Shown: positions 1 through 64,000, counted from the first letter of the stretch. The stretch: DNA of 64,000 bases from Raillietiella orientalis (GCA_036172245.1 JAYWIR010000060.1:558001-622000), one strand, 5' to 3'. Program-made: numbers and translations. Notes: a model not told the origin generated them from the sequence alone.

Positions 1-1358
1 GTTCCGACGCTGGAGCGGATGGAGCTTCTGCAGCTCTGGTTCCGGACTGTTGCCCTAGCAATTGCGGAGCACCACCTGGTGCCATCCTGCGCGCCTCCTC
101 GTGGAGCAGGGTCCACAGGTAGCACGGGACTCGCGCCCTTCCTTGCGCGCCATCGCCCTCGCAGCCTCCCATACTGCGGACTGCAGCTCCGGAGGGTGGC
201 CACGCTCTACAAGATTAACATGGGATGGACCTCCTGCCATCCCACACACGGTAGCGCCTAGTTGCGGGTCAACCGTGCGCATGTGGTCAAAGCTCAACGA
301 GTGATTCCCGGTGCAGGCGCAACGTCTGCTGCTGCTCTGTTCCTATAGCAACTGCTCGCTCCAGGAAATCCTGGGATATCACGGGAAGGGAGCATCGGCA
401 GGAAGAACCTCCCTTGCCTCAGCACTGCCCTCTCTGAGGGAACATGTGGATAGAAGATGTCTTGTGGTTAGTTGGGAGGCCAGGAAAAATCCGAAATCTC
501 CTACAGGAATTTTTATTCCTTTTCTTTTATTTATGACTTGGTAAAAGAACGACGGGCCATCCCGAGTAACCCACTCCGAGGACTTTTGCGATGATGCAAA
601 CTACTGGGTATTCCTGAGGAAGACCAGCAGTGGTCCCTGGTGATCTTGGACACCCGCATCCTCCCCTTGAAGTGGCAGGAGTCGGTGCTGCAGTTGCAGC
701 ACTGGGGTCTCTCGTGCGACGTCCGCCGTCATCGCTGGACACGGGTGATGGTGGTGCACCCGAACTGTGGCAAATGTGGAGAGCGCGAATTCCTCCCGTA
801 CTTGCTTGTGGGACTGTGCTGCTCCCCGGTCCCTTCAGGAACGCTTCGCCGCGATCCTGGGAACCCCCAGAGGCAGCCCCAGGGACGCTTTCAAACCATT
901 CCTCGTTTGTGACGCCCTCCGGCCGGCAGCCTCGCCAGCAGCTCTCTGCTGCCTACGTGGGATCGTCGCTGCTTGGAGCGATACGAAAGGAGGACCAATC
1001 GACAGGGATGCCACATCCAGTTCGCCGTTCGCTTCATGAGGATGGCAACGAGATGGCCCTCCTGGAGCACTGCATGAAGCAAGCGCTTGCCGGAATTTTC
1101 CGAAGGATGCGGAAAATTGTCCCCAGCTGGACGTGACCTCTTCCTGCACCTCCACCCCCACCCAGAGTTGATTTATTGATTTTATTTTTACTTCTTTTTG
1201 TTTGTCCTCCTCACCTCTGCTGCCGTGGCGTAACTCGCCGGTCTGCAAACCGTTCACCTGGCAGGCTTCCGTTGCAATGGGCGCTGTTGGTCCAACCACA
1301 ATCTGCTAAAAATGTGTACATTTATTTCAATAAACGACCCGAAGTACCCGGGAGAGAA
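1..1358 (+). mobile_element. E1: decayed 3' end of a Tx1/L1-like non-LTR retrotransposon (ORF2 C-terminus + 3' UTR)
   Basis: Frameshifted pieces LELLQLWFR, LPLKWQES..LHWGL, CGKCGEREFLPYLL, RDALRPAASPAALCCLRGIVAAWS match the ORF2 C-terminus of E8/E13. The 3' UTR has the family hairpin (1239-1252) and AATAAACG..CCCG/CGGG (1329-1352). Confidence 0.9.
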
Positions 1359-3838
1359 GCTGGGATTCGGATTCGCGGGAAGATGCCTTGTTCTGGTCAT
1401 CGGTCAGAGACGACGCTGCGACGCTTCCCGGCTTGCCCTGACACTGAATCTTGGAAAAATCTGGGGGATGAGGGGGCAGGGAGGTGGAACTCACGTGCGC
1501 CGACGTGCGCGGAAAGCGTTCCATCTTCCGCCTTTGGATCCAGGGCGGTAGTCACGTCACGAATCAAACGGGCGCCGTCGCGCCTGCCCTCGTTCGTGAA
1601 GGAACGAAGCATAAAAAAAGGGAAGGAGGGGAGGGGGAATCGGATCCGGGGAACTCTTCTGCGACGCCGTCATCCGAACTCGCTGGAGGCCAGCTGCCGA
1701 CCGGCCACGCAAGCCCGAGGAAGCAGAAGCGCTCTCGGAGCCGACTCACGGACGCCGGCCAACGCCCCCCTCGCCGACCTTCCTTTCCGCAGTTCCGGGC
1801 GCGGTAGATAAGAGCAGACAGAGCATCCTCCGGATCATTGACATGCGAGCTTCCGAAGCAGCACGGAGGAGGGCCTCTTGCCATTTTATGCTGCGGACGT
1901 GAAGAGAGGGGGGGGGGGGGCGAAATTGCGCAACGGCTCCGAGGCGCCACCAGCCGGTCTTCCGGTGAGCCAAAGACATTTCTCGCGAGGGGACTGCAGT
2001 TCATTTCGCCCCGCAGAGGGAAGACCTTCCGAACCGCGGGCAGCCGAGGACGGCATTGGTCCTGTCGCTAAGCGACGGGCACGGAGGAGAGACGCCCGCT
2101 CTCGGTGCCACTTTCCGCGGGAGCCGGCAGAAGGGGGAAGGCACCCGACTGCCCCCAATTTTTCAGCGGCCTGCGGGCAACCCCATAACTGCTGCGCAGG
2201 TCCCGGGGAGCAACCCGCTTCTCGATCGGAGATCGCCGGAAGGATTGTGAGTCTCGGGGATGCGAGAAGTGGATGGGGGGGGGGAGAATTTCCGATCGAC
2301 CACCAACGCGTGCACAGACTGCTCCCTGCTGCTTCCGCTTCTCCACCGCCGGAAGGGACGTTGCACTGGAGCGGCGGGCCCCCGAGAGGGCCCACGGGAC
2401 GTTTATCCCAGCCCGTGCCCAACCCAGGTCAGGAGATTTCCCTTCTTCCCGAGAGCTGCTTGACCCACCATCCCTGCAAGGACTTTCCATCGGAGCGTGC
2501 GAAACTCTCTCCCCCACCTGCTTGCCCACCTGACTGTAGTTCTCCCACGCACTCCCTCCCAGCATGCCTTAGAGCGTCTTTTACTTGCTCGGGAGCTTCC
2601 AGGAGCGGCACGATGCGAGCCGATGACTCCTTCCTGGCTGTCGGCGGTCACCCTCGTCAAGCTGCACCACGCTCTTTTTGCCCTCTGCGGGGCAAAAAGA
2701 GCTGCCCCTTTGGATGGCCAGAAGACGCCTCTGGTTGACCGGAGGGCCGGCTGCCAGGCAGCAGTCGACTGGTAGGCTGAGAAGTTGACGTCCCGCTTCC
2801 GGAAAACTTCAGGACTCTGCCCGGAGGATCAGCCAGTTGCTGTCCCCCGACCCATGCGCGAGCTCGACGAGTGCGCCTCCGACCGCCACCCTCTCACCCA
2901 TTCACCCGGGAGGGCACGCAGTGGTGAGACCCTCGGCCTCCGTCACGCCCCTACGAGCCGGACCGCCTTCCAGAGTCCCTCGCGTCCCCCTCATCGCTTC
3001 GGCCACGCCGGGGTTTCCACGGGCCTTGGATCGGCTGCTGAAGCAGCGGCGTCACCTATGACAACAATTCCAAGAAGTCCGGACGCCGCGAGAGGTTGGC
3101 CCGTTCCTCGGCCCTCCCGTCGCGGCACGGCCCTTCTCTGGAGAGGGAACGGCCTTGAGGAAGAGCAGCTCTCGCGCGTGCGTTCTGTCCTCAAGAGCGG
3201 GAATTTCCCCATTCGCCCTTGCGGGAGAAGGGGGAGAGCGGAGCAGGATTTTCGCCGCTCCCCGGGTGAGCTTCGCGTCGAGGTGCGAGGGCAGCGGACC
3301 GGTACGTGGCACACAAGTAGCCGGTCGCCGGAGGGAGGCGTCCGCTCCGATGGCCCCGCGACGCACTCACGCCAATCCGCGGTCCACCCCAAGCGGGCGA
3401 GGCCAAGGATGGGAGCGCCTGAGGGATTCCAGTGGTGGTCCGGGCAAGCGCCCCCCGGAGCGATGGCGAAGAAGAATGGCGGCGGGGAAGGGTAGCGTTT
3501 CTTTGAGGGAGGGCGTCGGCGAAGCTGGCGCAGTGGAAGGGATTGTGACCCGGAGGGGCGGGGCGCAGGGCTCCGAGCTCATTAGGAATGGGGTCGACAA
3601 CGCAAAGAGGAAACGCCCTTCTAGCCTAGAGTTCCGGGGTCTGTGCGACGGAATGGGGGGGGGGAATACAATAAAACAAAAGAAGAGGGAAAGAGGAGGA
3701 GTGCGGTCTACTTCAGGCTCCGATAACGGGAAGATGGACCAGTCGGGATCATCGTCCGAGTTGCCTTTTTGTCCCCGGAGGAACGCGCTGGCACGCCGCC
3801 TGATCTGATTGGCTGTTGAGTTTGCGACCCTGCCGCCA

Positions 3839-7300: not shown

Positions 7301-7359
7301 CTTGCAGGCCTCATCATCGACCCGGGCACGTAGCTCGAGTTGTAGCTACGTGTGGGAGT

Positions 7360-8140: not shown

Positions 8141-8241
8141 CGCCCAACAGCCAGGATATACACGGCGTGAAGCGGCTCTCGCGACCTGACCTCGTTCTGG
8201 AAAAAGGGAACCAGGTCGGCATACCTGATGCGTGCCGTCGG

Positions 8242-24990: not shown

Positions 24991-25004
24991 CGTCTACCTG
25001 CAGC

Positions 25005-26866: not shown

Positions 26867-26869
26867 CGC

Positions 26870-30990: not shown

Positions 30991-31090
30991 AGGGGACGGG
31001 TTTTTGTTTTGCTCTTGAGCGTTTGTAAATTTATTTTTTTTTTCTTTTTTTTGTTGGTGTGCCAGTGGATTCGGTGGTGGCTAGGCAGCA

Positions 31091-36290: not shown

Positions 36291-36537
36291 AGGACGTCTC
36301 CAGCGGAACGTGATCCCTTCCCCAACCCCTCCCTGCCTTTGTGAATAGTGTTTTCTTTTTGCTTTTTTTCTATTTGTCCCTTCCCCCTCCGCTGCCGAGT
36401 CGACCTTGGGAGCCTGCGTGCTGCCCACTCGGCGAGTTCAGAAGAACATGTTCTGAACACTGTAGGGGCGATAGCCCTACACTTGCTTGTTTATTTTTTA
36501 TTAAAGAAAGAAACGCCCCAACGCACCCTGGTGTAAA

Positions 36538-39518: not shown

Positions 39519-39635
39519 CGTACAGTGCAGACGTGTTTCCGCGTCTATCCGCGCCAACGATCGGGCAACTTTGTGCCTGCGTTTTTGCTCGAACTTGTGT
39601 GTTCCTGTGCAATCTGCCAAGTAGCATAGTGCAAC

Positions 39636-40916: not shown

Positions 40917-41015
40917 TTTTTCTATAAAAATACAAAATTTACATTCGCACTCTCATTCACTCAAGACAAACATTTTGTAGTTGGGGGTCCTTGGGTTGCA
41001 CTAGAGTTCTGCTTT

Positions 41016-44000
41016 TCAGGGGGGAATTCCAGCTGGATGGTCCCGGGCGTCGTCCTGGATCCTCTTCAGGATGAATTGGTACGTCCAGGCGTGGATCTTC
41101 CCGCAGTTCCTGATGCCGATTTCCCTCTTCAGGAGCCCTTGTAGGATCTCCATCGGTGGTGCGACTCTCCTGGCTTTCCTCATTTTCCACCACCGCACAA
41201 GTATGGCGGTGATGAAGAGGGCTATGGTCTTCCTCACCATGGGATTGTAACAGGGAACATTACCATCCCAATGAAACATCCCGGCGAGGATCTCCATAAT
41301 GGACTTGTTGGTAAGTCCTATGATCCTTTTCAGGATCAGCCAGTCATGCAGCAGTGTGGGACACGTCAAGACGTGAAGTCTCGTGTCGTCGTCTCCACAT
41401 GCTGCGCAGTCTCGGTCTTCCCGTCTTCCTGTAAAGTGCTGCAATCGGGACCCACTCTGGATTCCTCCGTGATAAAACATCAGGAGGTCATCCTGGGTGC
41501 CCGGCGGAAGGTCACTCCTCCAGAGCGTCGTGCCGATCGCTAACAGGTTGAACCGTTCACTCCCGTAGCGTTCGGTGGCTTCCTGGAGGGCACAGGTGTC
41601 ACGGTCGTTTTCTTGGATAAGCCTTCGGAGGTTTGTTCTGGTTACCCTCGACCATGCGAAGTCGTTGTGGTTGAACCACACTTCGCGGGTCCTGTGGGTA
41701 AACCTTCCTAACATCATCTCTGTATACCGAAGTATACGTGTTTGATGTAGGTAGCCTCCTCGCCTCCACTCCTGGATTTGCTGTAGGGTAACTCTGGACC
41801 GCTGGTAGATCCAGCTTCTCGTGTCCGGTGGGACAGGAAGCAACCAAGGGATCACCAGGTTGGACTCGTCCTGCCAGAGTTCCCTGCTTCGCGGCACGAT
41901 CTTGATTTGGTGCTTCCGCACCAGCCGTTGCTTCCTCCTCCAGGTCGGGTCGATTCTTATCCATTCCCCTACTTTGCCTAGCAGCGCAGTCATCAGGCCT
42001 TTCGAGTTGTTAAGCAACAACGCGTAGGCCCTGTGCGCCGCATACGGCCAGTCATCCCAGTAAGTGGCAATGTCCAGGATGTGTCGCGTATCCATGATTC
42101 CCATGGAATGTGCAAGCGACTTCATCCCGGAACCGCCTTCTTCCCTGGGACGACACAGTGGTTTCAGTCTTACCCTTGGGCGATAGTGGCCCCAGAGTGT
42201 TTTTCTTTGCAGCTTGTCGAACTCCCTAGTAGTGTCCTTGTTCATCCTCGCGAAGGCCGCCCCGAAGAGCACTTTCGGAAGGAGTACTCCGTTCCATATG
42301 TTGGCCTTTCGCTTCATCCCCAGGTCCGTTCGGGTGTACTTGGCTGCTTCCTTGGCCGTTTTCCCCAGGATTTCCTTCCACAGCAGCTTCGACGCAGAGC
42401 CGTCGCCGATGTAGACTCCCAGGTACATGGCCGTGTCCACCGTACGGAATCCACTATCCGTTAGAGTGGATAGATCCAGTATTCCGACGGGCAAAAGCTG
42501 GCTCTTCTGGGAATTGATTTTTAAGCCCAAGCCCTGTTCCATCAGGTCCACCACATCCAGAAACGCACGCTGATTTTTCTCTCCCTTGATGAAGAAGAGT
42601 AGATCATTGGCGTATGCCAGATGGGTAAGACGCTGGCTATCGATGGTAATCCCGCTTAGTCGTCCGCTCTTCTCGATAAAGGACGACAACGCCTCCATAT
42701 AGATGACGAACAGCATCGGACTTAGCGAGTCGCCCTGTCGGACTCCTCGTTCCATCCTGATTGCTGCCGTCTCCTGGCCGTTGATCTTGATCCGGCAGTA
42801 CTGGTTCTGGAGTACCGCCCTCACGAAGTTGCTGAAGTGTTCCGGAAGCCCTAGCTTCTCCAGAACCTTCAGCAGCATCCCGTGGTCGATGGAGTCAAAG
42901 GCCTTCTCCATGTCAGTGAACACCAGCACCAGGTTCTCGCCGACGTATCGACTGAGTCCAACAGTGGCCTGGGCACACTTGACATTGTCCGACATGTGTC
43001 GACCTGGGACTGCACATGTCTGGACCGGAGAGATCAGCCTCGACATGACCTTGCCTAAGCGGTTGGACCAGATCTTCGCCAACCACTTGGCATCGGAGTT
43101 TAGGATCGAGATTGGCCTCCATTGGGCGATCTGGATAGAGTCGCCTCCTTTCGGCAGCAATCTCATCCGACTCTCGTAGAAGGACTGAGGTAGTCTGCCT
43201 TCTTCCCGGATGCAGAGGGTCAACTGGTGGAACAAGCGCAGGTAGGCGTGCAGGTACCGCTGATAGTGCGTGATGGGTACACTGTCAGGGCCCGCTGCCA
43301 CGTCCTTGCGAAGTTGCCCAAACGCAGTTCTCACCTCTTCTTCGGAGAACTCCTCCTCCAGTCTGTTCCCCTGGAGGTCGTCGGTCCTCTTCTCGAGATA
43401 GCTCAAGAAGGCCTGTTGACAACAGCGACACAGCTGTTGTCGCCTGAAGTGTTTCGTGTAATGCCTGTGAAAGGCATCCACGATGTCCTCAGACGACTGT
43501 CGCTTTTGGCCGTCGTACTGGATGCAGAAGATATCTGTTTCCAGATTTCTCTTCTCCAGCACGCCGACTTCCCCTTTTATGTTATTGAGGACGTACCGAC
43601 TCTCGTACTGATCAAAGTACTTTGAGAGGGAGCGATCTTGGATGTTCAGCTCCCGGTACGCCTCTTGCCTCAAGCGCCTATCCCCGAACTGCATGTTCGC
43701 AAACAGGTGTATCCTGTGTTTCAGGCTGTCCCAGTCGGCGCCTCTTCGGATTGTTGTTGCCCTCAGAATCGCCTCCAGGACAGCCTGATGTCCGGGATGC
43801 GTTTCGAAGCAGGCGGGCATGCTGATGAGCGCTGCCCTGGTGCCTTGCCTCCGCCGAGGATTCTCCGTTCTTAGGGAAAACCGCACCAGGGGGTGATCGG
43901 ACACCGTAGTCATAGTGTCGCGAAACCCCTGGATGCGGTTCCCAAGTTCGGTGCTGTGCAGGACGTGATCGATTGGCTTGTGGCTTGCTGTTCGCCCGAC

Positions 44001-44639
44001 CAGTCCGAACTCCTCGGATAGCCGTCGATACGCCGTCCTTCCTCTGGCGTCTTCCGAATGAATGATCTCATCCAAGATGTTGAGATCGCCAGCAACAATC
44101 ACGACGTCCTTAGGGGCGACCTTTTGCCGGAGTGTTGCATGCAGCGCCTCCGCACAACGATGTTTTAGCCTGTGCGGCCCGTACACGTTCACCAGGATAA
44201 GGTGAACAGTCGTGGACCAGGCCAGTCGCACGCCGATGATTCGTCCGGGTTGGGGACAGAACACTTCCAGAATAGTGGGGGCTAAGTGGTTCTTTATTAG
44301 CACCGCCACACCCTTCGTGTTCCGTTCTCCTTCGTTGACGAACATCTGCCCGTTGAATCGCCGTTCCATTCGCTGGCTTATCTCGAGAGCCATCCTGTGG
44401 GACTCCTGCAGGCACACGATGTCTTGTTGTGCGATGGTCCGCACAATCCTTCTTCTTTTTCCCTGGTCGACCACACCGTTTACGTTCCAGGAGGCGATGT
44501 TAATCCTCCTGGCGGTCGATAGGGAAGAGGCCAGAAAAGGGGAAGACCTATTTTTTGGCCTTCCTGAGCTTCTTCTGTCTGAGAGAGCGTGCTCTTCCAG
44601 ACAATGAAGAAGCAGAGGGCTTCTCGCTGCCGGCGTCAC
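41016..44639 (-). CDS. E11 ORF2: APE endonuclease + RT + C-terminal zinc finger (1207 aa open frame; YAND instead of YADD)
   Basis: IASWNVNG, CLQE, NVYGP, AGDLN, IDH, SDH; GPDS, WRPISILNSD, DMEKAFD, GVRQGDSLSP, YAND, YLGV; CAACGDDDTRLHVLTCP. Confidence 0.95.
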   Translation of the reverse strand: MTPAARSPLLLHCLEEHALSDRRSSGRPKNRSSPFLASSLSTARRINIASWNVNGVVDQGKRRRIVRTIAQQDIVCLQESHRMALEISQRMERRFNGQMFVNEGERNTKGVAVLIKNHLAPTILEVFCPQPGRIIGVRLAWSTTVHLILVNVYGPHRLKHRCAEALHATLRQKVAPKDVVIVAGDLNILDEIIHSEDARGRTAYRRLSEEFGLVGRTASHKPIDHVLHSTELGNRIQGFRDTMTTVSDHPLVRFSLRTENPRRRQGTRAALISMPACFETHPGHQAVLEAILRATTIRRGADWDSLKHRIHLFANMQFGDRRLRQEAYRELNIQDRSLSKYFDQYESRYVLNNIKGEVGVLEKRNLETDIFCIQYDGQKRQSSEDIVDAFHRHYTKHFRRQQLCRCCQQAFLSYLEKRTDDLQGNRLEEEFSEEEVRTAFGQLRKDVAAGPDSVPITHYQRYLHAYLRLFHQLTLCIREEGRLPQSFYESRMRLLPKGGDSIQIAQWRPISILNSDAKWLAKIWSNRLGKVMSRLISPVQTCAVPGRHMSDNVKCAQATVGLSRYVGENLVLVFTDMEKAFDSIDHGMLLKVLEKLGLPEHFSNFVRAVLQNQYCRIKINGQETAAIRMERGVRQGDSLSPMLFVIYMEALSSFIEKSGRLSGITIDSQRLTHLAYANDLLFFIKGEKNQRAFLDVVDLMEQGLGLKINSQKSQLLPVGILDLSTLTDSGFRTVDTAMYLGVYIGDGSASKLLWKEILGKTAKEAAKYTRTDLGMKRKANIWNGVLLPKVLFGAAFARMNKDTTREFDKLQRKTLWGHYRPRVRLKPLCRPREEGGSGMKSLAHSMGIMDTRHILDIATYWDDWPYAAHRAYALLLNNSKGLMTALLGKVGEWIRIDPTWRRKQRLVRKHQIKIVPRSRELWQDESNLVIPWLLPVPPDTRSWIYQRSRVTLQQIQEWRRGGYLHQTRILRYTEMMLGRFTHRTREVWFNHNDFAWSRVTRTNLRRLIQENDRDTCALQEATERYGSERFNLLAIGTTLWRSDLPPGTQDDLLMFYHGGIQSGSRLQHFTGRREDRDCAACGDDDTRLHVLTCPTLLHDWLILKRIIGLTNKSIMEILAGMFHWDGNVPCYNPMVRKTIALFITAILVRWWKMRKARRVAPPMEILQGLLKREIGIRNCGKIHAWTYQFILKRIQDDARDHPAGIPP

Positions 44640-46314
44640 TCTCCGTACCTGTGAGGTCGGTAATTTCCGCCTCCTCCGTAGAGTGTTCCGCCTGCGCGAT
44701 CAATTTTCGAGATAGCGCCTCTATCTCGACCTTGGCGCAGAAGTTCGCCTTCACGTCGAGAAGCTGTTCCACTAACTTCTCGCGTTCAGCGACCTCCACC
44801 ACCTGGTTGATGTTCTCTTGTGCAGTGCAGATCTTCTGCAAGATTTTCTCTTGCTGAGGACCGCTCTGCACCTCCATGATCTCCTCCGCCAGTGTTGCCA
44901 ACTCCTCCGTAGTCTGCGGAGCCTCCTGCGACACTTTAGTGGCTTCCTGTCTCTCTTCCTTCGCGCCTTCCTGCGCTACCTCCATCTTCTCGCCTTCCTG
45001 CTCTGCTGCTTCCAGGATTTGAGGAGTTCCTTGCTCCTTGACGAGCATCCTCCTCTTTCCCTTCTTTCCCACTTCTATGAAGCCGTCCGCCGACACCGGG
45101 ACAGCTTCTTTCACTTTTTTCTGCCTTCCTGCCTTCTGAGGCTGTTCGGCCTCCTTGATGTTTCTCTCTCTCACGGGAGAGAGACCTCGAATCCTTCTGC
45201 AGTTTTTAAACTCCGGACAGCTCCATTTCGCATGTCCGTGTTTCTTGCAGAAGGAGCACACCTCCGGATGCGGGCAGTTTCGGACTTGATGTCCTACTTT
45301 GCCGCAGCGGAAACAACGACTCGTTGGGCAAGAGCCGGCCCTGTGACCGAACTGCTTGCACCCGGTGCAGAATACCGGTTGTTGCCGGTAACGCACATTC
45401 ACTCCCTGGGATTGTTCGTCAATAACGGCCAATCCAGGGATCACCGCTCCCTCCCTCAACTTCATCTTGGCGATCATGTCGCCAGAAAATATGTTTCCAG
45501 AGAAGTTCTGGAAATCAAGGTCCAGAACTTCCCCAAACTGCTCCAAGTAATTCCACACCGCTAGTTGCGGTGTGCGGATGGAGATGCCGTTTAAAAAGAC
45601 GGTTGTGTATGGCATCTCGCCAATACCACAAACCATCCGTCCTTGTATATTGATCCCCTTCTGGATCAATCGCTCTCTAATTTTTTCACAGTCTGTAAAG
45701 ACTGTGAACCCGTTGTTTGATGGAATGATCGCCTGAATGCGATCAAAGTCTATGTCCGTCTTGTCGAGGGACAAATAGACCTCCCTGATGTTATTAAATC
45801 TTATTAGCTCCGTCTTGAAGATAATGGGCTTCACGTTGGGGCCTATTTCGACTATTGGTCGGTCCACTTTTAGTACTTTTCCGCTAAGCGGCTTACCGAA
45901 TTTCCTAGGTGGGTGGACACTCGCCTGTCCAGCCGCCACCGACGCATAAGAAAAAGGCTGCGACGCCGCAGCCGAACAAGATGGCGTCGCTCCCTGCACC
46001 GCGTGGACGCCCGCGGGTCCCGCCTGGGACGCCACCGCCGCGGGCGCAAACCTCGACGTTGCCGCCGTTACCGCCGCGGGCGGCACCTTCGGCATCGCCG
46101 CCGCAGGCGCGACCTTCCCCGCCGCGGGCACGATCCTCGGCGTCGCCGCCGCGGGCACGACCTCCGCCGTCGTCGCCGCGGGCACGACCCTTGGCATCGC
46201 CGCCGCCGGCGCAGCAAAGCCCGCCGCGGGCGCGATCCTCGGCATGCCTGCCACCGCCTCGCCGTTGCCGCACGTTACCTCCATGGCTTCCATGGGGGAC
46301 GACGGTCTCTCCAC
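44548..46314 (-). CDS. E11 ORF1: gag-like nucleic-acid-binding protein (588 aa)
   Basis: RRM-like TVFLNGI..YLEQFGEV and three CCHC knuckles (CTGCKQFGHRAGSC, CFRCGKVGHQVRNC, CSFCKKHGHAKWSC); Ala/Pro-rich N-terminal repeats. Confidence 0.95.
   Translation of the reverse strand: MERPSSPMEAMEVTCGNGEAVAGMPRIAPAAGFAAPAAAMPRVVPAATTAEVVPAAATPRIVPAAGKVAPAAAMPKVPPAAVTAATSRFAPAAVASQAGPAGVHAVQGATPSCSAAASQPFSYASVAAGQASVHPPRKFGKPLSGKVLKVDRPIVEIGPNVKPIIFKTELIRFNNIREVYLSLDKTDIDFDRIQAIIPSNNGFTVFTDCEKIRERLIQKGINIQGRMVCGIGEMPYTTVFLNGISIRTPQLAVWNYLEQFGEVLDLDFQNFSGNIFSGDMIAKMKLREGAVIPGLAVIDEQSQGVNVRYRQQPVFCTGCKQFGHRAGSCPTSRCFRCGKVGHQVRNCPHPEVCSFCKKHGHAKWSCPEFKNCRRIRGLSPVRERNIKEAEQPQKAGRQKKVKEAVPVSADGFIEVGKKGKRRMLVKEQGTPQILEAAEQEGEKMEVAQEGAKEERQEATKVSQEAPQTTEELATLAEEIMEVQSGPQQEKILQKICTAQENINQVVEVAEREKLVEQLLDVKANFCAKVEIEALSRKLIAQAEHSTEEAEITDLTGTESDAGSEKPSASSLSGRARSLRQKKLRKAKK
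46010..46250 (-). repeat. Coding minisatellite in E11 ORF1 (..PAA.. units)
   Basis: Repeated CCCGCGGCG-based units encoding PRIAPAAG, PRVVPAAT, PRIVPAAG, PKVPPAAV, SRFAPAAV. Confidence 0.8.
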
Positions 46315-47178
46315 TCATCTTCTAGGTGCCTGCATCCTGGCAGCTGGTCTTGCTGCACGGGACCACTGCAGGTCTTTTGCCGCGATCTCCTCGCCGCTTC
46401 TTTTTTTTGTTTCTTCTGGAAAACTTCCCCTCTCCGGGCACACACGAGCACAATGAACTGATTAAGTTGTCAAGCGCAGAATACTTTGAGCCGCGGAGCA
46501 AGTTCACCGACTCGGCAGGAGAGGAGGGATCTGCCGACTGTCAAGAAGGTGACTGCGTTGCCGCCTTTTAAAGGCGTAGGGAAAGCAACGCCCCCAAGAG
46601 AACGCAGCGAAAATCCCGGAGGTTTCCGCAACTACTGCCGCGGAAGCCTCCAAAAATCGCGAAGGCGTATAAAAGGTTGTGAAGAGGAGGAAAGAAAAAT
46701 CCCCAAGAAAAGCTCCGCAACCTCCATCCCTGAGCTCTTCCAAAGGAAAAAGCAGTCGCGGGAATACGAAAACACGCGCGGCTTGTGCCTCTTCCAAGGA
46801 AAAAGCCAGCGCCTTTAACGCGTGCAAGTCCGCTTCTGTGACCGCCGAGAAGAATATTCCGGTGCGATCGGACGGATACAAACGCACGTCGATCGTGCGA
46901 GCATCAGACTTCGCAAAGGAGTCCGATAGCGCCGCTGAACGACGCGTTTCTCGCGCGGAAGCGAGCGCCCGCAGGGCGGAAGCCCTGAGGCGTGACACAC
47001 TCGCCGCGGAACGGCGAGTGCTCTCCCCGGAACCCACAGGTTCTGCACCCGGGGAGGAGCACCCAATTACGTGCAGCACAGTTGAGGCCGGTGCCGACCA
47101 CGCCCTCCAGCCCGTCGTGCTGCTTACTGCCCGCTCGCCGGGTGAGGCGAACACCACGGCCTCGCTTTCCCAGCCGTG

Positions 47179-50100
47179 ATGAGGGCAATCGCGTCTTCTT
47201 GTCGTGTTGCCGTAACGTCTTGGAACGTCAACGGGCTACAACACGAGGAGAAGAGGCGACTAGTGGCTGACGCTCTGCGCGCCTTCGACTTGACGCTCCT
47301 GCGGGAGATTCACAGCATCTCCGGAGAGCAGGCTGCCGAAATCGAACGGCGCGCGGGCGGAACGCTACTTTATAGGTGCGGCGTTGCACGTACGTGCGGC
47401 GTCGCTTTCCTCGTGCGAGGAACTTTGGCGGGAGCGGTGCGCAGCGTTCGTTTCGACACGGAAGGCCGAGTGGGACAGCTTGTACTCAAGTGGTAACCAA
47501 CGTGTACCCGCCGAGCGGTGCTGGACGATGGGCCGAAAGGATTGAGTTCTTCGGTACCCTTCAAAGCCAGTGGCTCACTCGATCTCACCCTACTGTGGCC
47601 CATCTCATTGCGGGGGACTTTAACGTCCACCTGCTTTCCGAGAATAGATCCCACAAAAGGGAAAAGTTGCTAGCGGAAGAAATGTGCGCGTCCGTGCACG
47701 CGTGCAACTTGTTCGCTAGCGACCCTGTTATGGCAGCAACGCCGGACCACGTATACCTTGATGAACACTTGCTCTGTCGAGTGGGTCGGAGAGGTCCCGT
47801 GCCGTCCGTGCTTTCAGACCATAACAGGCTCGAGTTCGAGTTGCTCCCGCCAGGCAAGGGGCCTCCAAACTGTTTTTGGAGGATGCCGGCAGACTGGCTA
47901 AGCCACCCGGAGGCGGCTGAGCATCTTCGCCAGTACCTCCTCGGCTTTGCCATAAATGAGCTCGACGACTGGGACGATCTGAAAAGATCGGTCCGGGAGT
48001 TCTGCTGCCGGTTTCCCTTGCACCAGCTTCCGCGCGGCTTCGGAGAGGGCGTAGCCAACAGCAGAGATTTTCTGCAGGCCCGCTCCTTTTCCAGGCGCGC
48101 GGACGTTGGTCGATTATCCCAGTACAAGGCCAAGGCCGAGCGCCAGGTCTGGCAGTCAGGGGCGACAGTTCTGCTCGACGACCAGGACCGGGAATGCTCG
48201 GCTCCAGCCGACGTGCGACGGATAGTCAGGCGCTATTACTCTTCTCTGTATGCAGAGGCACCGACGGAACGCAGCCTCTCCCGGCTGCTTCTGCCGATTG
48301 ATGCACCTGTTGTAGACGAGGAGGAACGCGCGCGTCTTGATGAGCCCTTCACGGCCGAGGAAATTTCCTCGGCTACTCGGGGCTCAAGAGACGAAAAGCG
48401 CCAGGCGAAGATGGGCTTCCCGCGGAATTCTTTCAGTGTTTTGCGGCGGAGCTCATCCCCCTGGTGCTCCAACTCTCGTCGCTGATGCGAGACTCGGGCG
48501 ATGTCCCCGCCTCGTTTCGCTCAGCGAAGGTGCGTCTACTGCCGAAAGGCGGAGATTTGCGCCAACTGAACAACTGGCGTCCGATCACATTAGTGAATTC
48601 GGACGTCAAGTTGTTCTCGAAACTTTGGGTGGCGCGGATGGGTAGGATCGCGGAATCCTTGGTAAGTCCGGAGCAGATGTACGCTGTTCCTGGGCGGACC
48701 ATGGACGGGAATCTCTTGTTCATCCGCACATGGCTGCAATTGCAGCATCGTGTGGCGGTGGATCGTCGTGCGTAAGAGACGCCTTCCATCTCTCACCGAC
48801 GGAGGCGCGGGACGCAAAGGGAGACACCGGGAGCCTTGGCGGTTGCAGTCGATCTGCACAAAGCTTTCGATTGCGTGAACCAAAAGCTTCTTCTTGAGCT
48901 TTTGGAACGTCTGGGTCTTCCGGCATCCCTGTTGGCGTACTTGCGCTAATGCTGGCGCCACGCGATTACATCCATTGTTTTCAGTGGCTGTCGCGTGTAC
49001 GGCGTGCCGGTACGACGAGGAATTAGGCAGGGTGACAGCTTAAGCCCGCTGCTCTTCAGCATCTATTTTGAATTGGTGCTGGAGGCTTACAGGTTGACGC
49101 TAGCCAACCTGCCGAGCTCCTGTCCAGGTACGCCGGCCGTGGCAGCCTATGCCGACGACCTGCTTCTTCTGTTGCCCATGTCCACCCCGGCGACATCGCT
49201 TGAAGACTTCTTTGAGTTGATTCGTCGCGGTGCGGGCGTGAGCGTTAACAGGAGTAAGTGTATGGTTGTTCCGGTGGGTGCGACGTGGGAGGAGCAGTCC
49301 GACTGGATCGACCTGGGGATCCCCACGGGCAGGTACCTCAGGTACCTTGGCGTGCCGTTGGGCGACTTCTGCATCTCAGAAGCGTGGTCGGACTGCCTTC
49401 GGAAGGCAGAGCGTGCACTTATCCCGTTTTCAGGAGGCGAGTTCGTCTTGCCGGAACAGGCCTGCATCTGGAACACCTTCGTTGCCCCCCTCCTCCGCCC
49501 CCTGTTTTTTGTTGGTCAACCCCCTCAGGAAGTCAAAGTCTGGGCGCAGCGTTTTCTACGCAAAGCGTTGTGGGGCGCTGAAAGATCCCGTGTTAGACTT
49601 AAAGACTTGGTGGCGCCGCGTCAGGATGCAGGCTTGGGCATCCTCGACTTAAACAGCATCGAACTGCAGGTGCAGTTTCGCATGCTGCGGCTCTGTGCCA
49701 AGCTGTGGTGTACGCCGTGGTGCTTACCCGCACGCCTTATACTGAGGCGCTGCACGGGAAGCGAGGGACTGCTTTCGTTGCTACCCCACTTTCGGCACAC
49801 CAGAATAGGGTTTGGCTTCCCGCTGAGGCAGCTGTCCTCACTGCTGGAAGCCCCAAGCTGGATCTCCTGCCGCCCCATGAACATTAATGCATGGCGGCAG
49901 GAATCTTTTTCATCGTGGGCAGCTTCCGAAGGAACGCGCCCGGAAGATCTTCGACGCCTGCGACTTCTCCTCAGTCATCAAATGGACGAAGTCATGCAGG
50001 ACAAGAAGTTGTCGGATCGTCTGGCCGCCACACCACTCGCCGCAGCGCTGTCTGCCCTCAGGGCAAGCAACCACGGTTGCCTACCGGCGGAATGGAAGTT

Positions 50101-50728
50101 CTCCTGCAAAATAGCGGAAGTCAGTAAGCTCCTCGGCAGCTGGACGACAAAGGATCTGGTGCAAGTCGCCACTCCTCGGAATTGGGCGAAGGGTCTGCTT
50201 CGGTGGAGCGAACATTTCAGTGTGCCCCCCGTAGAGATAGTGGTTCCCCCCGTTTGTTTGGACAGCTCCGTGTTCCCCCTTAAGTGGAAACAAGATGTGC
50301 TGCTCTTTTTACATTGTGCATTTCACTGTAATAGGCAGCGAAGCATCGTTTCCGGGGGAGCTGCCTTGCCAAACTGTTTAAGGTGCGGAGAGATCGAGTC
50401 TTTTCCGCACCTTTTGCTGGACTGCGGTGACCTCCGGGAACTGTGGCGAAGGCTCACTTCGGCCATCATGCCACAAGGAGGCACTGCCATTGATGTGCTG
50501 CGGCGCTTCTTCAGCAGAAATGGACTTTCGGTTAGCGCGATTGATGCAACCATGTGTTGCGTTCGCGCCATCGTGAAGGCCCGCTACGCCCTGGAGTTGT
50601 CATCGCAGCGAAGGGAGGCTCACCTGCTTGCAGCTCAATTCATGGAGAAGGCTTCAAGGTGGTCTCATCTTCGTGACAAGGTGAATCAGGACATCACCGG
50701 CATACATCGCCGGTTTACACACCTTTGA
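47179..50728 (+). pseudogene. E10 ORF2 (APE + RT + zinc finger), frameshifted
   Basis: VTSWNVNG, AGDFN, SDH, NWRPITL, QGDSLSP, YADDL and CLRCGEIESFPHLLLDC spread over ORFs 47176, 47376, 48464 and 48995. Confidence 0.93.
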
Positions 50729-51082
50729 GAACGGCGTAATCCGGTGACCCCTGCGACCTCTCGCCCACCCATACCCCGTCCCCGTTCGCTCGGTAAAATT
50801 TCCGGTGCCCATGCTTTTATCCGCGTGTCTTCCAGAGCGATCCCAAAGACCCTTATCCCGTCCTCCTTATTCATTGTTTTTATTTTATTTTGGTTTCGTT
50901 GTGTTTCCCACCCCCCCCACACCGTTCAAGAAACTGTTACTCTGGCCTGCGTGCCAGCAATATTCTCTTCATTCTTGTTCAGTTGTCGGTTAGGAGTTTG
51001 GTTCCCAACTGGTTTATTTTGTATAATTGCTTTTTTTCGTTATGTTATATGGAATAAACGCCCCGGCGTCACCGGGTGAGAA

Positions 51083-52977
51083 ATCTCCCGGGCTTGATCT
51101 GCGGAGATCACGTGGATCTCCTGCAGCAGCACCAGGTCGAAGGATGCCAGGGTGGCGGCCACTTCACGCCTCTTGCCGTCGTCGCTTAGCCCGTTCACGT
51201 CACAACAGGCGATCAGAAGACGACGGCGAGAGGCGATTCCCGGCATTATGGCTGGGAAAGTGGCGTCGCGGCACCTGCCGCGGGGCAGGTGTAGGACAGG
51301 TCCATCGGTACGAGGACATAGGCCTCTTCAGGCGCCTGGGGTACCTGTTCGGCCTCCATCCTCACCATCCCCTCCGTGTCCGAGCGTGGAATTCTCTCGG
51401 GCGACGGGTCCCGGGAGTTTCCCACGCTCATGGCACCCTCGCTACCGGAAGCCATCTCTTCCCCTTCGTCGGGGGAGACGATCTTCCGGGCATTGTGGAC
51501 TTTCGTCCTTCCTTTTTGCGGGGTGCCGCGGAGATGGATGCTGTGTTTCCGGCCTTCACCTCGGGGTCGGAAGTGGCCGACTCCTGAGGCGAAGCCGGAC
51601 GCCTGACGGCCTTCTTGCCAGCCTTGGGGGCAACCGGCTGCAACGAGGCAGCCAGCTCCTCCGCGGCGCGCTCAAAGGCGACGTCATCGAGCGTGGGCTC
51701 GATGACGCACGCCACCGCCTCGCTCCACTCCTTGTTGACTTTGTCAACGGAGGGTTGAGCAGGGGCAGCAGGGAGTTCTTTAGCGCCGCATTCGTCGATG
51801 GCGGGGGTCGTCCGCTTGCAACGACACGCTTGGCTTTTACGTTGTATCGCGGCGCAGAGCGGATTCGCTCCGTTTCGCCACGTTCTTTCCCTTCTTATGG
51901 GAGTTTTTCTTGGGGTCGACCTTCTGCCATTCTGGCTCTTGACCCTCGCCCTCGACCTTTCCGGCGTCTTTCGCCGAAGTCTCGGGGCTGGCCTTCGCCT
52001 TGGTGGCGGAGGTGACCTCCGTAGCAGCAGCACGAGCTGCCAGCTTCTTTCTCTTTTTTGCCGCGCGCTTTCTCGCGTTTTTCGCGGACACGACGCGGAC
52101 TGTGTTTTGTGGGCACACCAGACGGGTGTGCCCCGCTTGTTTGCATTGCTGGCACTGCACGCTCGGACACGTTATTTTGCGGTGACCAAAGCTGCTGCAG
52201 CAGCCGCAAAACTTGGGTTTCCCCACGTACCACACGTCAACGGATTCACCGTTGACGGTGAGTTTGTGGGGAAACTCACATCCCTCGCGAACCGTCACTC
52301 GAGCTGCTCCCAGGCCGCCAAGCACCCCGTCGTAATCGACAAAAGGAGTAGGCTTTCCTTACAGCGCGTGGACAGTTGCGAATTTTTCCAATTCGTTCCG
52401 GACGGCCTCCTTCGTCATCCGGAACGTGATACCGGTGAGGTGAATGATCTCCGACCGATCTTCAGTAATAGGAAGAAGCCTCCGGCTGCCCATAATTACG
52501 GGAGTTCGCAGAAGTCTTTGCGCAAGAGTTGCCTCCTTGCACATAACTTCCACAAATTGACCCCCGCTTCTGACGGACATAGCCAGAAGCTCCTCTTTCT
52601 GTACGCCAAGAACGCGCATCGCCTGTGAGAAGGCGCGCGCGTTCTCGGGAGAATATAGACCGCCAACCTTATATAGAAGGGGTGGGTTATACCCCTCCTC
52701 CAGGTAAGCGCGCATTTCCACCATAGCCGCTGGCGTAGGTGCCGCAGCCACGGCGTTCCAAGCCCTAGGTAGTGCCGGGGGCGCATCCGTGCTGGCGGGA
52801 GCCTCCACTGATGCGGGAGCCCCCACCTCCATCTCCTCTGGGGGCAATAAGGTCATCGCCCCCGGATCCTCACCGGTGGTGGTATCAGGCATTGCTACCT
52901 AATCCTCCACCCACACCACGCACAAGCACCAACGGAAATGAAACTCAAGAGCAACGAAAAGACACGTCCGCTCGACG
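51083..52977 (-). mobile_element. E9 (5' piece): 5' UTR, disrupted ORF1 (52892-51246) and ORF2 start
   Basis: MPDTTTGEDPG.. near-identical to E12 ORF1, with a stop at 52359; TAATG overlap at 51246; ORF2 cut at ISADQAREI. Confidence 0.93.
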
Positions 52978-53205
52978 CTCCGGAATCTCCATTGAAACCC
53001 GGGTGCGCCGGGACGTTTATTCTAACGAATAAACTTATACAATCTGTGACTGGACCAGTAGTCCAGCCACGCCCTGGAAAGATATAGCCTGCCGGGCTAC
53101 CAGTGCGCAGACCGGCGCGGTCGACCTCGGCAGCAGAGGGGAGGGGGAACGAAACAAAAAGAAAACAAAAAAATAAACAAAAATCAGGGAGGGAGCGGGA
53201 AAGGA

Positions 53206-58437: not shown

Positions 58438-58522
58438 TGCTGCCTAATCCTCCACCCACACCACGCACAAGCACCAACGGAAATGGAACTCAGGAGCAAC
58501 GAAAAGACACGTTCGCTCGACG

Positions 58523-61500
58523 CTCCGGAATCTCCAAGACTGGGACCTTTTTAAGGAATCGGTCTGGGAGTTCTGCGAGCAGTTCCCCCTGGACCGCCTG
58601 CCCGCCGGATTCGGCGAGGGTCCTCGCAACCATCGGGCCTATTTACAGGCCCGTAGGTACGAGCGAACCTCTAATGTCCGTCGCCTCGCCGAGTACCGAG
58701 CCGGGGCCGAACTCCAAGCCTGGCAATCCGGGTCGGCCAGCTTGCTGGCCGACCAGGGCCGGGAATGTTCGTCCCCGGCGTCGGTACGGCATCTCGTGCG
58801 GAGTTTTTATTCCTCCCTTTACGCCAGGGAGCCCCCGGATCAAAACGCCTCTAAGCGCTTGCTTCCGGATGGCGCCCCGGCAATAGGGGTGGAGGAGATG
58901 GAAAGCCTCGACGAGCCTTTCACCACCGGCGAAATTCTCGTCGGTATCAAAAGGCTGAAGAGGCGTAAAGCTCCAGGGGAAGACGGCTTGCCCGCGGAGT
59001 TGTTTCAGAGCTTCGCGGAAGAGCTGGCACCCCTGCTGCTTAAGTTGATCAGGCTGATCTGAGAGTAAGGCGATGTTCTCGCCTCGTTTCGTTCAGCGAG
59101 AGTGAGGCTCCTTCCGAGAGGGGGAGACCTCAGGGATTTAAAGAACTGGCGTCCGATCACGATCCTGAATACGGACGTTAAGTTGATAGCAGGGCTATGC
59201 ACTTCGCCTCTGGGGCAGGTGGCAGAACCCGTAATTAGCCCGGAGCAGACTTATGCTGTTCCCGGGCGAAGTATGGATGCCAACCTATTGTTCGCAAGCA
59301 CATGGGTGCACCTGCAGAGAAGAGAAAAGAAAGGGATAGGGAAAGTCGGCAACCCCACATTGGGGCAACCAGCCGGGCTGGGAAAGGAACCCCGGGCGGG
59401 GAAGGGGGCCCTAGCGCTCGCAGTCGACCTCCACAAGGCGTTCGACTGTGTAGACCAGGAACTCCTCTTGGAGCTCCTGGGTCGCTTGGGCTTCCCACCG
59501 TCCCTGATTTCCTACCTGTGCTCTTGCTGGCGGAAAGCGATGATTACCGTCTCTTTCAGCAGTCAAAAGGTGTATGGCGTGCCGGTGCGGCGGGGCATAA
59601 GGCAGGGAGATAGCCTCAGCCCGTTGCTCTTCAGCACCTACTTTGAGTTGGTGCTAAGAGCGTACAGGGTGACTTTGGCCCCATTGCCGAGCTCGTGCCC
59701 CGGCACGCCCGCCGTAGCAGCGTACGCCGAGGATCTGCTTTTGTTGCCAATGTCAACCCCGGCGAAGGCGGTCGGAGACTTCTTCGATCTGCTCAGCCGC
59801 GGAACCGGACTGCAGTTTAACAGGGCGAAGTCGTCGGTTGTGCCAATAGGTGCGGAGTGGGCAGAACAGCAGGACTGGGTCCGTCCGGGGATCCCCACGG
59901 CGAGTTGCTTCAAGTACCTTGGTGTGCCGTTGGGGGACTACTCCCCTGCGGAAGCGTGGTCCAGCTGCCTCCAAAAAGTCGAGACGGCAATCGGCCCGTT
60001 CCTGGAAGGCAAGTATCACCTGCCGGAACGGGCCGCGGTTTGGAACGCCTTCGCGGCCCCCATCCTCCGCCCCTTGCTTTTTGTTTGCCCCCCCACCGTG
60101 GAATCCAAGAAGAGGACGAAGGACCTCCTCCGTATCGCCCTTTGGGGCAAGGGGAGGCCCCGAGTCTCACTGAAGGACTTGTGCGCTCCGCGTCGGGACG
60201 ACGGTCTTGGCCTCCTGACGCTGGAGCGCGTGGAGAAGCAGCTGCGGTGGCGAACCCTCGCCATCGCAGCGAAGTTGTGGAGCACCCCTTGGTGCACTCC
60301 GGCCCGCCTTCTGGCCAGCCGTGTGTCACGGTGCGATGGACTCGCGTCTTTTCTTCTGAGCCGTGGCCGGAAGATGCGAAGATGCGGCCTACTGCTCGGG
60401 CGCATGGCAACATTGGCCAAGGAGAACAGCTGGATGGTTTGCTGCCCCGCCAACTCCCCCGCCTGGCTGCAGGAGAATATTGGAACGTGGGCAGTAGTTA
60501 ACCGGAAAAGCCACGAGACGTGGAATCGTCTCCGATGCAGCCCCTACGCCCGCTGCACGCTGCGGAATCTCCTGGAGAGTCCAGCAAGATGCACGTGGGC
60601 AGAGACGACCTGCCTAGCTACGGCGCTGCCTTTCCTAAGGAGGGCACTTCACAGCACCCGGACGCCAAGGTGGCAAGTCTCCTGTTGCATCGAGGGACGC
60701 GAGAAGTTGGTCAGCGGCTGGACAACAGGAGAACTGGCCGACGCCACGACCCTGAGCGTCCAGCCGCGAGGATTATAAAGAAGGGGCGAGCTGCTCGCCA
60801 TCCCCATGGATGAGCTGAAGTGGCCCCCGATGATGAAAGAATTTAGGATCCTGCCCCTAAAGTGGCAAGAGTCGGCGTTGCTTTTGTTGCACTGGGGTCT
60901 ACCCTGCAACGCGCGCCGCTTCCACTGGACGAGGGGAGCTGTGGATCCTGCGTGTGCCAGGTGCGGGGAGCGGGAGTCGCTTCCCCACCTTATTGTGGAT
61001 TGTGCTGCCCTCCGACTCCTTTGGGAACGGTTCGGGACGACCCTCGGGCTCCCTACAGGCAGCACCCCCAGAGTCGTTCTTCAACCCCTCTTCGTGAAGG
61101 ACGCACTGCAACCAGCCGCAGCCATCGCAGCCTTGTGCTGCGTCCGTGGCATCGTGGCGGCATGGAGCGACGCCAACAACGAAGGAGTGGGTCCAAAGGT
61201 GAGGGATGTCATCCCATACGCCCAACGCTTCATGCGGAGAGCTGCCGGATGGCCGCAACTGTGGTATATCCGGACGAACCTCGAGGGCTTCCTTCAACGG
61301 ATGGGCCCTCCTCACAGCGTTTTGTGATCCCTTCTCTGCCCTCCAACTTCTTTTTGTCTGTTAATTTTTTATTTTTCTTTTTGTTTTATCCCCATCCCCC
61401 TTCGCTGCTGAGGAACGCTACGCTGGGCTGCGTCCCGCCGTCCTGGCAGGTACAGTGTATATGGCCGTGAGCAGGGCCTTGTACCGCGGATCTAGAGTTT

Positions 61501-61534
61501 TACCAATAGACGCCCCGGGCGTACCCGGGTGTAA
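58523..61534 (+). mobile_element. E13: Tx1-like ORF2 from linker to end + 3' UTR (host of E9/E12)
   Basis: Starts LRNLQDWDLFK; PGEDGLP, NWRPITILN, QGDSLSP, YAED, CARCGERESLPHL; ORF2 ends 61327; terminus AATAGACGCCCCGGGCGTACCCGGGTG. Confidence 0.93.
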
Positions 61535-62081: not shown

Positions 62082-64000
62082 TTCTCGCCTGTCACGCAGG
62101 GGCGTTCATTCCATATAACATAAACAAAAAAACAATTCTACAAAATAAACCAGCTGGGAACCGAACTCCCATCCAACGACTCAACAAGAATGAAGAGAAT
62201 ATTGCTGGCACGCAGGCCAGAGTAACAATTTTGCGAACGGTGTAGGGGGGGCAGGGAACACAAAGAAACCAAAATAAAATAAAAACAATGAATAAGGAGG
62301 AAGGAATAAGGGTCTTTGGAATCGCTCTGGAAGACACGGGGATAGAAGCATGGGCACCGGAAATTTTACCGAGCGTACGGGGACGGGGTATGGGTGGGCG
62401 AGAGGTCGCAGGGGTCACCGGATTACGCCGTTCTCAAAGGTTTTTAAACCGGCGATGTATGCCGGTGATGTCCTCATTCACCTTGTCACGAAGATGAGAC
62501 CACCTTGAAGCTTTCTCCATGAATTGAGCTGCAAGCAGGTGAGCCTCCCTTCGCTGCGCTGACAACTTCAGGGCGTAGCGGGCCTTCACGATGGCGCGAA
62601 CGCAACACATGGTTGCGACAATCGCGCTAACCGAAAGTCCATTTCTGCTGAAGAAGCGCCGCAGCACATCAATGGCAGTGCCTCCTTGTGGCATGATGGC
62701 CGAAGTGAGCCTTCGCCACAGTTCCCGGAGGTCACCGCAGTCCAGCAAAAGGTGCGGAAAAGACTCGATCTATCCGCACCTTAAACAGTTTGGCAAGGCA
62801 GCTCCCCCGGAAACGATGCTTCGCTGCCTATTACAGTGTAATGCACAATGTAAAAACAGCAGCACATCTTGTTTCCACTTTAGGGGGAACACGGAGCTGT
62901 CCAAACAAACGGGGGGAACCACTATCTCTACGGGGGGCACACTGAAATGTTCGCTCCACCGAAGCAGACCCTTCGCCCGATTCCGAGGAGTGGCGACTTG
63001 CACCAGATCCTTTGTCGTCCAGCTGCCGAGTAGCTTACTGACTCCCGCTATTTTGCAGGAGAACTTCCATTCCGCCGGTAGGCAACCGTCGTTGCTTGCC
63101 CTGAGGGCAGACAGCGCTGCGGCGAGTGGTGTGGCGGCCAGACGATCCGACAACTTCTTGTCCTGCATGACTTCGTCCATTTGATGACTGAGGAGAAGTC
63201 GCAGGCGTCGAAGATGTTCCAAGCGCGTTCCTTCGGAAGCTGCCCACGATGAAAAAGATTCCTGCCGCCATGCATCTATGTTCATGGGGCGGCATGAGAT
63301 CCAGCTTTGGGCTTCCAGCAGTGAGGACAGCTGCCTCAGCGGGAAGCCAAACCCTATTCTGGTGTGCCGAAAGTGGGGTAGCAACGAAAGCAGTCCCTCG
63401 CTTCCCGTGCAGCGCCTCAGGATAAGGCGTGCGGGTAAGCACCACGGCGTACACCACAGCTTGGCACAGAGCCGCAGCATGCGGAACTGCACCTGCAGTT
63501 CGATGCTGTTTAAGTCGAGGATGCCCAAGCCTGCATCCTGACGCGGCGCCACGAAATCTGTAAGTCTAACACGGGATCTTGCAGCGCCCCACAACGCTTT
63601 GCGTAGAAGACGCTGCGCCCAGACTTTGACTTCCTGGTAGGGTGGACAAACAAAAAACAGGGGGCGGAGGAGGGGGGCAACGAAGGTGTTCCAGATGTAG
63701 GCCCGTTCCGGCAAGACGAACTCGCCTCCTGAAAACGGGACAAGTGCACGTTCTGCCTTCCGAAGGCAGTCCGACCACGCTTCTATGATGCAGATGTCGC
63801 CCAACGGCACGCCAAGGTACCTGAGGTACCTGCCCGTGGGGATCCCCAGGTCGATCCAGTCGGACTGCCCCTCCCACGTCGCACCCACCGGAACAACCAT
63901 ACACTTACTCCTGTTAACGCTCACGCCCGCACCGCGACGAATCAACTCAAAGAAGCCTTCAAGCGATGTCGCCGGGGTGGACATGGGCAACAGGAGAAGC
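62082..64000 (-). mobile_element. E15: E10-family element (3' UTR + ORF2 C-terminal half), runs off the window
   Basis: ORF 62770..63990 is about 95% identical (by eye) to E10 ORF 48995..50728; same 3' UTR. Confidence 0.95.

Follow-up and report, generated by a model that had tools for sequence, protein, structure and literature searches.

Long interspersed nuclear elements (LINEs) that, judged from sequence, belong to the L1 group of retrotransposons lacking long terminal repeats (non-LTR) end without a poly(A) tail in the DNA analysed here, a 64,000-nucleotide (nt) stretch of Raillietiella orientalis (GCA_036172245.1 JAYWIR010000060.1:558001-622000), hereafter the window. The copies display precise tail-less ends, target-site duplications (TSDs), one covarying hairpin, a conserved end cassette and re-used insertion sites, and the feature is a tail-less 3' end, probably of stringent type, in a site-specific L1-group lineage. 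Relaxed priming that depends on poly(A) is exemplified in textbooks by L1-type reverse transcriptases (RTs), and tail-less ends are unusual for L1 relatives. From about 23.8 kb to the end of the window (23760-64000), LINEs are packed wall-to-wall, nested and on alternating strands, and a separate LINE 3' fragment lies at 1-1358. The nine termini listed by a first-pass annotation (T1-T9) all lie at the 3' end of a LINE open reading frame (ORF) 2 and 3' untranslated region (UTR). All nine were found at the places and on the strands that it gave, save that T5 starts at 36508 rather than 36511, and its list overlooked a tenth end, on element X:

1329..1358, + strand: T1 terminus; AATAAA, 4-bp stem, AA; a decayed LINE, its end placed by analogy only, with no homologue in the window
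24061..24090, - strand: T2 terminus; antisense in the host ORF2 C-terminal site S2, common to T5
25220..25249, - strand: T3 terminus; ATTAAA; antisense in host ORF2, SLY|AR codons
28022..28051, - strand: T4 terminus; within host ORF1, antisense; end placed to 1-2 nt
36508..36537, + strand: T5 terminus; AAGAAA; pairing of the consensus hairpin disrupted, with a predicted stem in a shifted register; site S2
51053..51082, + strand: T6 terminus; within endonuclease codons of the host, antisense; site S1, common to T9
52992..53021, - strand: T7 terminus; 3' end of full-length element A, site S3
61505..61534, + strand: T8 terminus; AATAGA with a 6-bp stem; inserted into host ORF1 in sense orientation
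62082..62110, - strand: T9 terminus; AATGAA; one pair compensatory, another broken; site S1
40882..40918, - strand: tenth terminus (X); AATGAA, 5-bp stem of different sequence, AAA; 37 nt

The ends were set independently of the motif, by TSDs and by alignment of the 3' flanks with uninterrupted homologues of the host LINEs: homologues place T2, T3, T5, T6, T8 and T9, a duplicated flank places T7 and host codons place T4. The elements T6, A and X are delimited as follows:

39519..51082, + strand: T6 element, full length, interrupted by X
39507..39518, + strand: 5' copy of the 12-bp TSD of T6
51083..51094, + strand: 3' copy of the 12-bp TSD of T6, abutting the terminal AA
52992..58522, - strand: element A (T7), full length, the length taken from host codons and the T6 5' end
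52978-52991 and 58523-58536: putative TSD of element A, about 14 bp
40882..46506, - strand: element X, both ORFs open, interrupting T6
40869-40881 and 46507-46519: 13-bp TSD of X, perfect
44548..46314, - strand: X ORF1, 588 amino acids stop to stop, with zf-CCHC
41016..44699, - strand: X ORF2, 1227 amino acids stop to stop, with APE endonuclease and RT

The distance from the start of the hexamer to the end of the element is 30 nt in eight of the nine termini and 29 nt in T9, the gap from hexamer to AA is 22 nt (21 in T9), and AA closes all nine. The terminal run of A's is two in eight and three in T5; together with the AAA of X, two or three A's are found in ten of ten ends, in line with the annotation's statement that at most a few A's and no poly(A) are present. 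The last four bases ahead of the AA vary among T1-T9, and no microsatellite repeats follow the stem-loop, only a single 4 nt plus AA. The perfect 12-bp TSD of T6 abuts its AA and the perfect 13-bp TSD of X abuts its AAA, which leaves no space for a tail in either copy. All ten flanks start with 0-1 A, so the nicked primer would have had no T tract to pair with a tail; in human L1, by contrast, a T tract pairs with the tail at the primer. The marks of relaxed, mammalian-type L1, a 3' poly(A) tail and a T-rich priming site, are thus absent at all ten ends in the window. These observations support that the window elements carry no poly(A) tail and that reverse transcription began at a fixed base, 6 nt past the stem. 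The annotation had placed this start right after the hairpin; the fixed base is borne out by the TSD and homologue junctions, while conservation of the hairpin for its pairing, and the poly(A)-signal role that the annotation gave to the hexamer, are not.

Could ordinary poly(A) tails have been present and later decayed, or collapsed in the assembly? Several copies are old and broken, and the contigs available for comparison come from a DNA sequencing run that may share the window's source, and so are not independent. In these contigs, a loose end at 51084, the T6 terminus, is not poly(A), a weak observation from 17 letters of a diverged contig among the 10 of 243 loose ends listed. Against decay, X with its two open ORFs and perfect TSD and T6 with its perfect TSD keep just two or three A's, the remainder is the same two or three in ten of ten ends, and A/T runs of 10-12 persist elsewhere in the window, which makes decay or homopolymer collapse a poor explanation. 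The annotation had named long tails on young copies elsewhere, with those here decayed, as what would overturn its reading; within the window we see no sign of such decay, the junctions of T6 and X and the one outside junction being without an A tail. With ends placed by TSDs and homologues, the intact X among them, tail decay is very unlikely, and we regard this explanation as extremely improbable.

The last 30 nt of the elements form a cassette of hexamer, GC stem and AA. The pattern AATAAACGYCCCGG-N5-CCGGG, allowing up to three mismatches, has seven matches in the window where 0.03 are expected, and none of 100 shuffles reaches seven; T5 and T9 lie outside it. In a scan for the hexamer-C motif, a GC stem comes next at nine of the nine termini matched and at 3 of 27 other sites. 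Scanning metagenome contigs for a pattern yielded 17 loci, none with similarity to LINE protein or DNA (best tblastn E 0.06), and we therefore take these as chance. The full consensus of hexamer and stem proposed by the annotation is exact in four of the nine (T2, T4, T6, T7); its AATAAA, put forward as general, occurs in five, the others having ATTAAA, AAGAAA, AATAGA and AATGAA. Across 34 pairs of copies, with two same-family pairs left out, identity is 76% in the last 30 nt versus 56-61% in the next three 30-nt blocks upstream. Conservation of the end cassette as a sequence is well supported by these comparisons.

The pairing of the terminal stem is less regular: 88.9% of 45 cells are paired, with one compensatory change and five unpaired cells. 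The 6-bp stem noted earlier in T8 is real, as is the compensatory change in T9 (G-C to U-A), which stands beside a broken outer pair that the annotation did not report; the other four unpaired cells are in T1 and T5. A balance of one compensatory change to five breaks, which is not significant, would agree with a cassette simply inherited among related families, in which the hairpin has no structural role. This would leave unexplained why the last 30 nt are better conserved than the adjacent UTR, why the distant X has a stem of different sequence at the same place, and why a hairpin further upstream covaries. We consider inheritance alone highly improbable.

This upstream hairpin, found in the 3'UTR alignment in nine of nine copies 102-136 nt from the end, has a 6-bp stem and a CUGCGY loop (CUGCAA in T1):

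1233..1258, + strand: upstream CUGC-loop hairpin of T1
24165..24190, - strand: upstream CUGCGY hairpin of T2
25313..25338, - strand: upstream CUGCGY hairpin of T3
28108..28133, - strand: upstream CUGCGY hairpin of T4
36404..36429, + strand: upstream CUGCGY hairpin of T5
50937..50962, + strand: upstream CUGCGY hairpin of T6
53095..53120, - strand: upstream CUGCGY hairpin of T7
61418..61443, + strand: upstream CUGCGY hairpin of T8
62200..62225, - strand: upstream CUGCGY hairpin of T9

Over eight distinct rows, 43 of 48 cells are paired and five of the six pairs change on both sides. None of 500 shuffles reaches the covariation score, slid registers are 23-52% paired, and swapping of arms gives p = 1.5e-4 (eight copies, T9 left out); these controls ignore the relatedness of the copies. 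The closing pair occurs as four different pair types, which is hard to get without a structure. The support comes from covariation only: folding of the nine regions as single sequences was no better than shuffles (z -1.14 to +0.99). The CUGCGY hairpin is the better-supported structure of the two. Further upstream, 150-230 nt from the end, the 3'UTRs of T1-T9 share a U-rich and then a C-rich tract, and their consensus fold contains a weak third hairpin.

The elements also appear selective in where they insert. The 3' junctions of one LINE in another run antisense to the host in eight of nine cases (six of seven distinct sites), T8 being the sense exception. A preference for a target sequence, a trait of the Tx1 clade, is present as re-use of the same base at S1, S2 and S3, with TSDs of 12 bp (T6), 13 bp (X) and probably about 14 bp (A). 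At S1 (51083, 62081), in endonuclease codons, T6 and T9 sit at the same base, and at S2 (36538, 24060), at the C-terminus of ORF2, T2 and T5 do; at S3 (58536, 52991, about 30988), in L-x-D-W-D codons, A stands in tandem with B, a relative at 92-99%, and T5 has its 5' end within about 12 nt. The first flank bases are shared at 15 of 15 positions at S2 and at 11 of 15 at S1, where the first five are identical. Duplication of a whole nested block as the source of these shared sites is disfavoured by the identity and omega values of the two pairs. Identity between T6 and T9 is about 97%, with a non-significant omega of 0.72, and between their hosts 70-90% (omega 0.47, p 0.04 for the endonuclease; 0.70, not significant, for the ORF1 piece). 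T2 and T5 diverged under some purifying selection: their omega is 0.47, with p = 0.004 in the C-terminal part and 0.053 in the RT piece. The evidence favours independent site-specific insertion, with the caveat that identity declines gradually as the T6/T9 junction is approached and that several of the omega tests fall short of significance. Elsewhere in the nest, the junctions at 24974 and 26866 stand head-to-head, about 13 nt apart in the K-A-F-D-C codons of a host RT.

How, then, is the start of reverse transcription fixed? The explanation we prefer, which we hold to be evenly balanced between right and wrong, is a stringent form of target-primed reverse transcription with a fixed start, which would probably lie at the base of a tail directed by AAUAAA. 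ORF2p would bind the 3'UTR module, the endonuclease would nick a site particular to the family, with TSDs of 12-14 bp, and the RT, while bound, would begin at the measured position 6 nt past the terminal stem. In the most weakly inferred step, cleavage of the RNA about 22 nt past the AAUAAA-like hexamer would be followed by adenylation, and the RT, starting where the tail begins, would copy just two or three A's. The distance from a poly(A) signal to its cleavage site is usually 10-30 nt, and the hexamer-to-end spacing of 22-28 nt falls within this range; a start at the tail base is favoured because of this fit and because the invariant AA follows variable bases.

Several observations weigh against this explanation. 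Priming on a homopolymer is expected to give a variable number of A's, and two or three are seen in every end. The hexamer is non-canonical in five of ten ends and predicted to be mostly paired (unpaired < 0.2) in six, C7 and G8 are invariant though a poly(A) signal needs neither, and a fixed U/GU-rich element is lacking downstream (T fraction 0.12-0.35 versus a background of 0.21). X lacks the CUGCGY hairpin and also differs in its spacing. For the terminal hairpin, whose pairing the annotation noted, covariation was not significant: 52 of 500 shuffles do as well, arm-swapping gives p = 0.125 (eight copies, T6 left out as a near-copy of T9), and the stem is broken in 5 of 45 cells. In folds of 250 nt of 3'UTR (134 nt for X), T2, T3, T4 and X have a well-predicted stem, T6, T7 and T8 a weak one and T1, T5 and T9 none; its pair probability is at least 0.66 in only four of ten and at most 0.02 in the last three.

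The re-use of sites brings in a second explanation, in which the poly(A) signal is weak or masked and the RNA extends into the host flank, where it pairs with the nicked primer strand, an R1Bm-like start. The start would be set exactly at the templated end of the element, and the 3'UTR hairpins would merely bind ORF2p. Because a family re-uses one target site, the read-through bases would match the nicked strand, and for this reason such pairing explains the precise tail-less junction equally well. It is consistent with exact junctions without a variable tail in ten of ten ends, with the flanks common to same-family copies at S1 and S2 and the tandem of A and B at S3, and with the predicted pairing of the hexamer; R1Bm reportedly initiates accurately only with target sequence downstream (PMC7265360, PMC6007223). 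Left unexplained would be the retention of an AATAAA-like hexamer at cleavage distance and the constant final AA after four variable bases; in addition, the targets of T6 and T9 differ at 4 of the first 15 bases, and no 3' transduction of flank is evident. We consider read-through pairing, the chief alternative, possible, though on the unlikely side. Its strongest form, in which an L1-group lineage has fully abandoned poly(A) priming and RNA reading through a masked signal pairs with the next nicked target, we consider unlikely. If true, the tail-less junction and the mutual antisense targeting of coding motifs in sister LINEs would be one self-reinforcing, RNA-assisted mechanism of an L1-type enzyme.

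The template RNA could also resemble a histone mRNA, unadenylated or trimmed just past the terminal hairpin, with the RT starting at its free 3' end. The fixed 4 nt plus AA after a 5-bp GC stem and targets without a T-rich primer would agree with this. The terminal stem is, however, weak both in covariation and in pairing in context, no Rfam family matches in the window, and the upstream hexamer would be left unexplained, making such an RNA end improbable. Helitron or histone-type ends as such were set aside, the ends sitting on APE-RT LINEs with TSDs.

To which lineage do these elements belong? APE endonuclease (PF03372) and RT (PF00078) domains are found in ORF2 of X and in pieces of the other copies. 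A separate ORF1 with CCHC knuckles is a feature of plant L1 and Tx1; zf-CCHC was found in two of the five ORF1 pieces scanned, and the remaining pieces are homologous by tblastn. A zf-RVT match in the ORF2 C-terminus of T5 (E 5e-4) is weaker than the curated cut-off. The best match of X ORF2 in the PDB is human L1 ORF2p (E 6e-51; R2, E 8e-27), and plant L1-type proteins are among the homologue matches. In a quick IQ-TREE tree of 58 RT regions (58 of 58 rows), the five window RTs and a JGI metagenome protein, P0001, form a group of their own (SH-aLRT 99), separate from land-plant L1, from Closterium L1 and from the group with the sole TX1-labelled protein, which is automatically named and a long branch. 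P0001 is 73% identical to the RT of T5, so a public metagenome contains a close relative, and every other match is about 30% or less. By these protein comparisons the window elements are best called L1-group (L1/Tx1) non-LTR retrotransposons.

In this group, stringent hairpins and families without a 3' repeat have precedents. Stringent L1-clade LINEs are described for monocots (LINE1-1_ZM, 'monocot 1a') and Chlamydomonas (L1-1_CR) (PMC3472496; PMC3747384), and L1 families without a 3' repeat make up 9 of 233 in flowering plants and 5 of 15 in green algae (PMC3472496, Table 1). Tails of stringent LINEs carry a constant loop on a variable stem with compensatory changes (PMC3472496). The window elements resemble the monocot and Chlamydomonas L1s in being L1-type, in the conservation of the 3' end and in a hairpin whose loop is constant while its stem varies with compensatory changes; L1-1_CR ends in poly(A) (PMC3747384), whereas they end in a fixed AA. 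Since stringent L1 hairpins and repeat-less L1 families are already published, the ends described here are a variant on a known theme, and since recognition of a 3' stem-loop and pairing with the target are known in L2, R1 and monocot L1, the finding extends a known mechanism. The window RTs do not group with land-plant or Closterium L1 in the quick tree.

R1Bm is not known to carry a poly(A) tail; it is of a different clade and has a different target, and the window elements, unlike it, keep an AATAAA-like hexamer at cleavage distance. Both are site-specific APE LINEs, R1Bm inserting into 28S rDNA with an accurate start that reportedly depends on the downstream target (PMC7265360, PMC6007223). 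In UnaL2 and ZfL2-1/2 of the L2 clade and SART1Bm of the R1 clade, a 3'UTR stem-loop is recognised by the element's own ORF2p (PMC3747384, PMC5135761, PMC7265360); these belong to other clades and have a 3'UTR stem-loop in common with the window elements. TGTAA repeats close UnaL2, and a long poly(A) is required by SART1Bm (PMC3747384, PMC7265360); the window elements have neither repeat nor tail.

The site preference is reminiscent of target-specific Tx1 elements, which insert at set positions inside another transposon, Tx1 in Tx1D and Tx1-Mar/SINEU in Mariner-N4_AMi (PMC4494074). Like these, the APE LINEs of the window show antisense and sense sites and tandem insertions around the TSD. The targets named for the Tx1 elements are DNA transposons, LTR elements, RNA genes and microsatellites, while those in the window are coding motifs of sister LINEs, and SINEU have poly(A) tails that the window elements lack (PMC4494074). 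All vertebrate L1s studied end in AATAAA and then poly(A) (PMC5381506). The window elements share with them an ORF2 with APE and RT, an AATAAA near the 3' end and TSDs, and differ in having the hexamer followed by 22 nt with a hairpin and AA, and no T-rich target. A literature search, mostly without subscription papers and Repbase reports, found no L1/Tx1 family ending in hexamer, hairpin and AA. As a deep-branching L1-group lineage with precise tail-less ends, the window elements add a case to the proposed ancestral stringency of L1 (PMC3472496), and the intact X is a candidate for asking how an L1-type ORF2p starts without a duplex of T tract and poly(A).

X belongs to a distant family, with about 30% amino acid identity to the other window elements, and its 3' end of 37 nt in total consists of AATGAA-C, a 5-bp stem unlike the others in sequence, and AAA. 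Its ORF1 overlaps the ORF2 frame, in which the first Met is residue 103, and contains a 27-nt tandem repeat coding for Ala/Pro (46071-46245). Contigs cover X at about 4-8 times the depth of the adjoining stretch of T6 ORF1 to its left, which suggests more copies of X.

Among the other copies, T2 and T3 have large internal ORF2 deletions that begin at nearly the same RT position (24652-24661 and 26496-26516). Between 28022 and 39518, T4 lacks the rest of its 5' part and B the rest of its 3' part; a single recombination at T5 between two + strand elements would account for both losses. T5 as a recombinant of two elements was set aside, as its identity profile shows no break (66-80% to A, with one bin of 62%), though it is kept in mind as a hypothesis. 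About 10 nt into the element, the full-length 5' ends (39519, 58522, about 26867 and about 31000) have in common a short ACGTG-T-rich motif that may be a promoter element.

In the window as a whole, GC content is 59%, CpG is not depleted, and scans for Rfam families and for tRNAs each gave 0 matches. Between 1.4 and 23.7 kb, none of 19 long frames reached the Pfam cut-off. This region (1400-23700) is GC-rich (49-66%) and contains a direct repeat pair of 93% identity (3839-4305/13624-14090) and an inverted pair of 97% (8242-8677/11550-11987).

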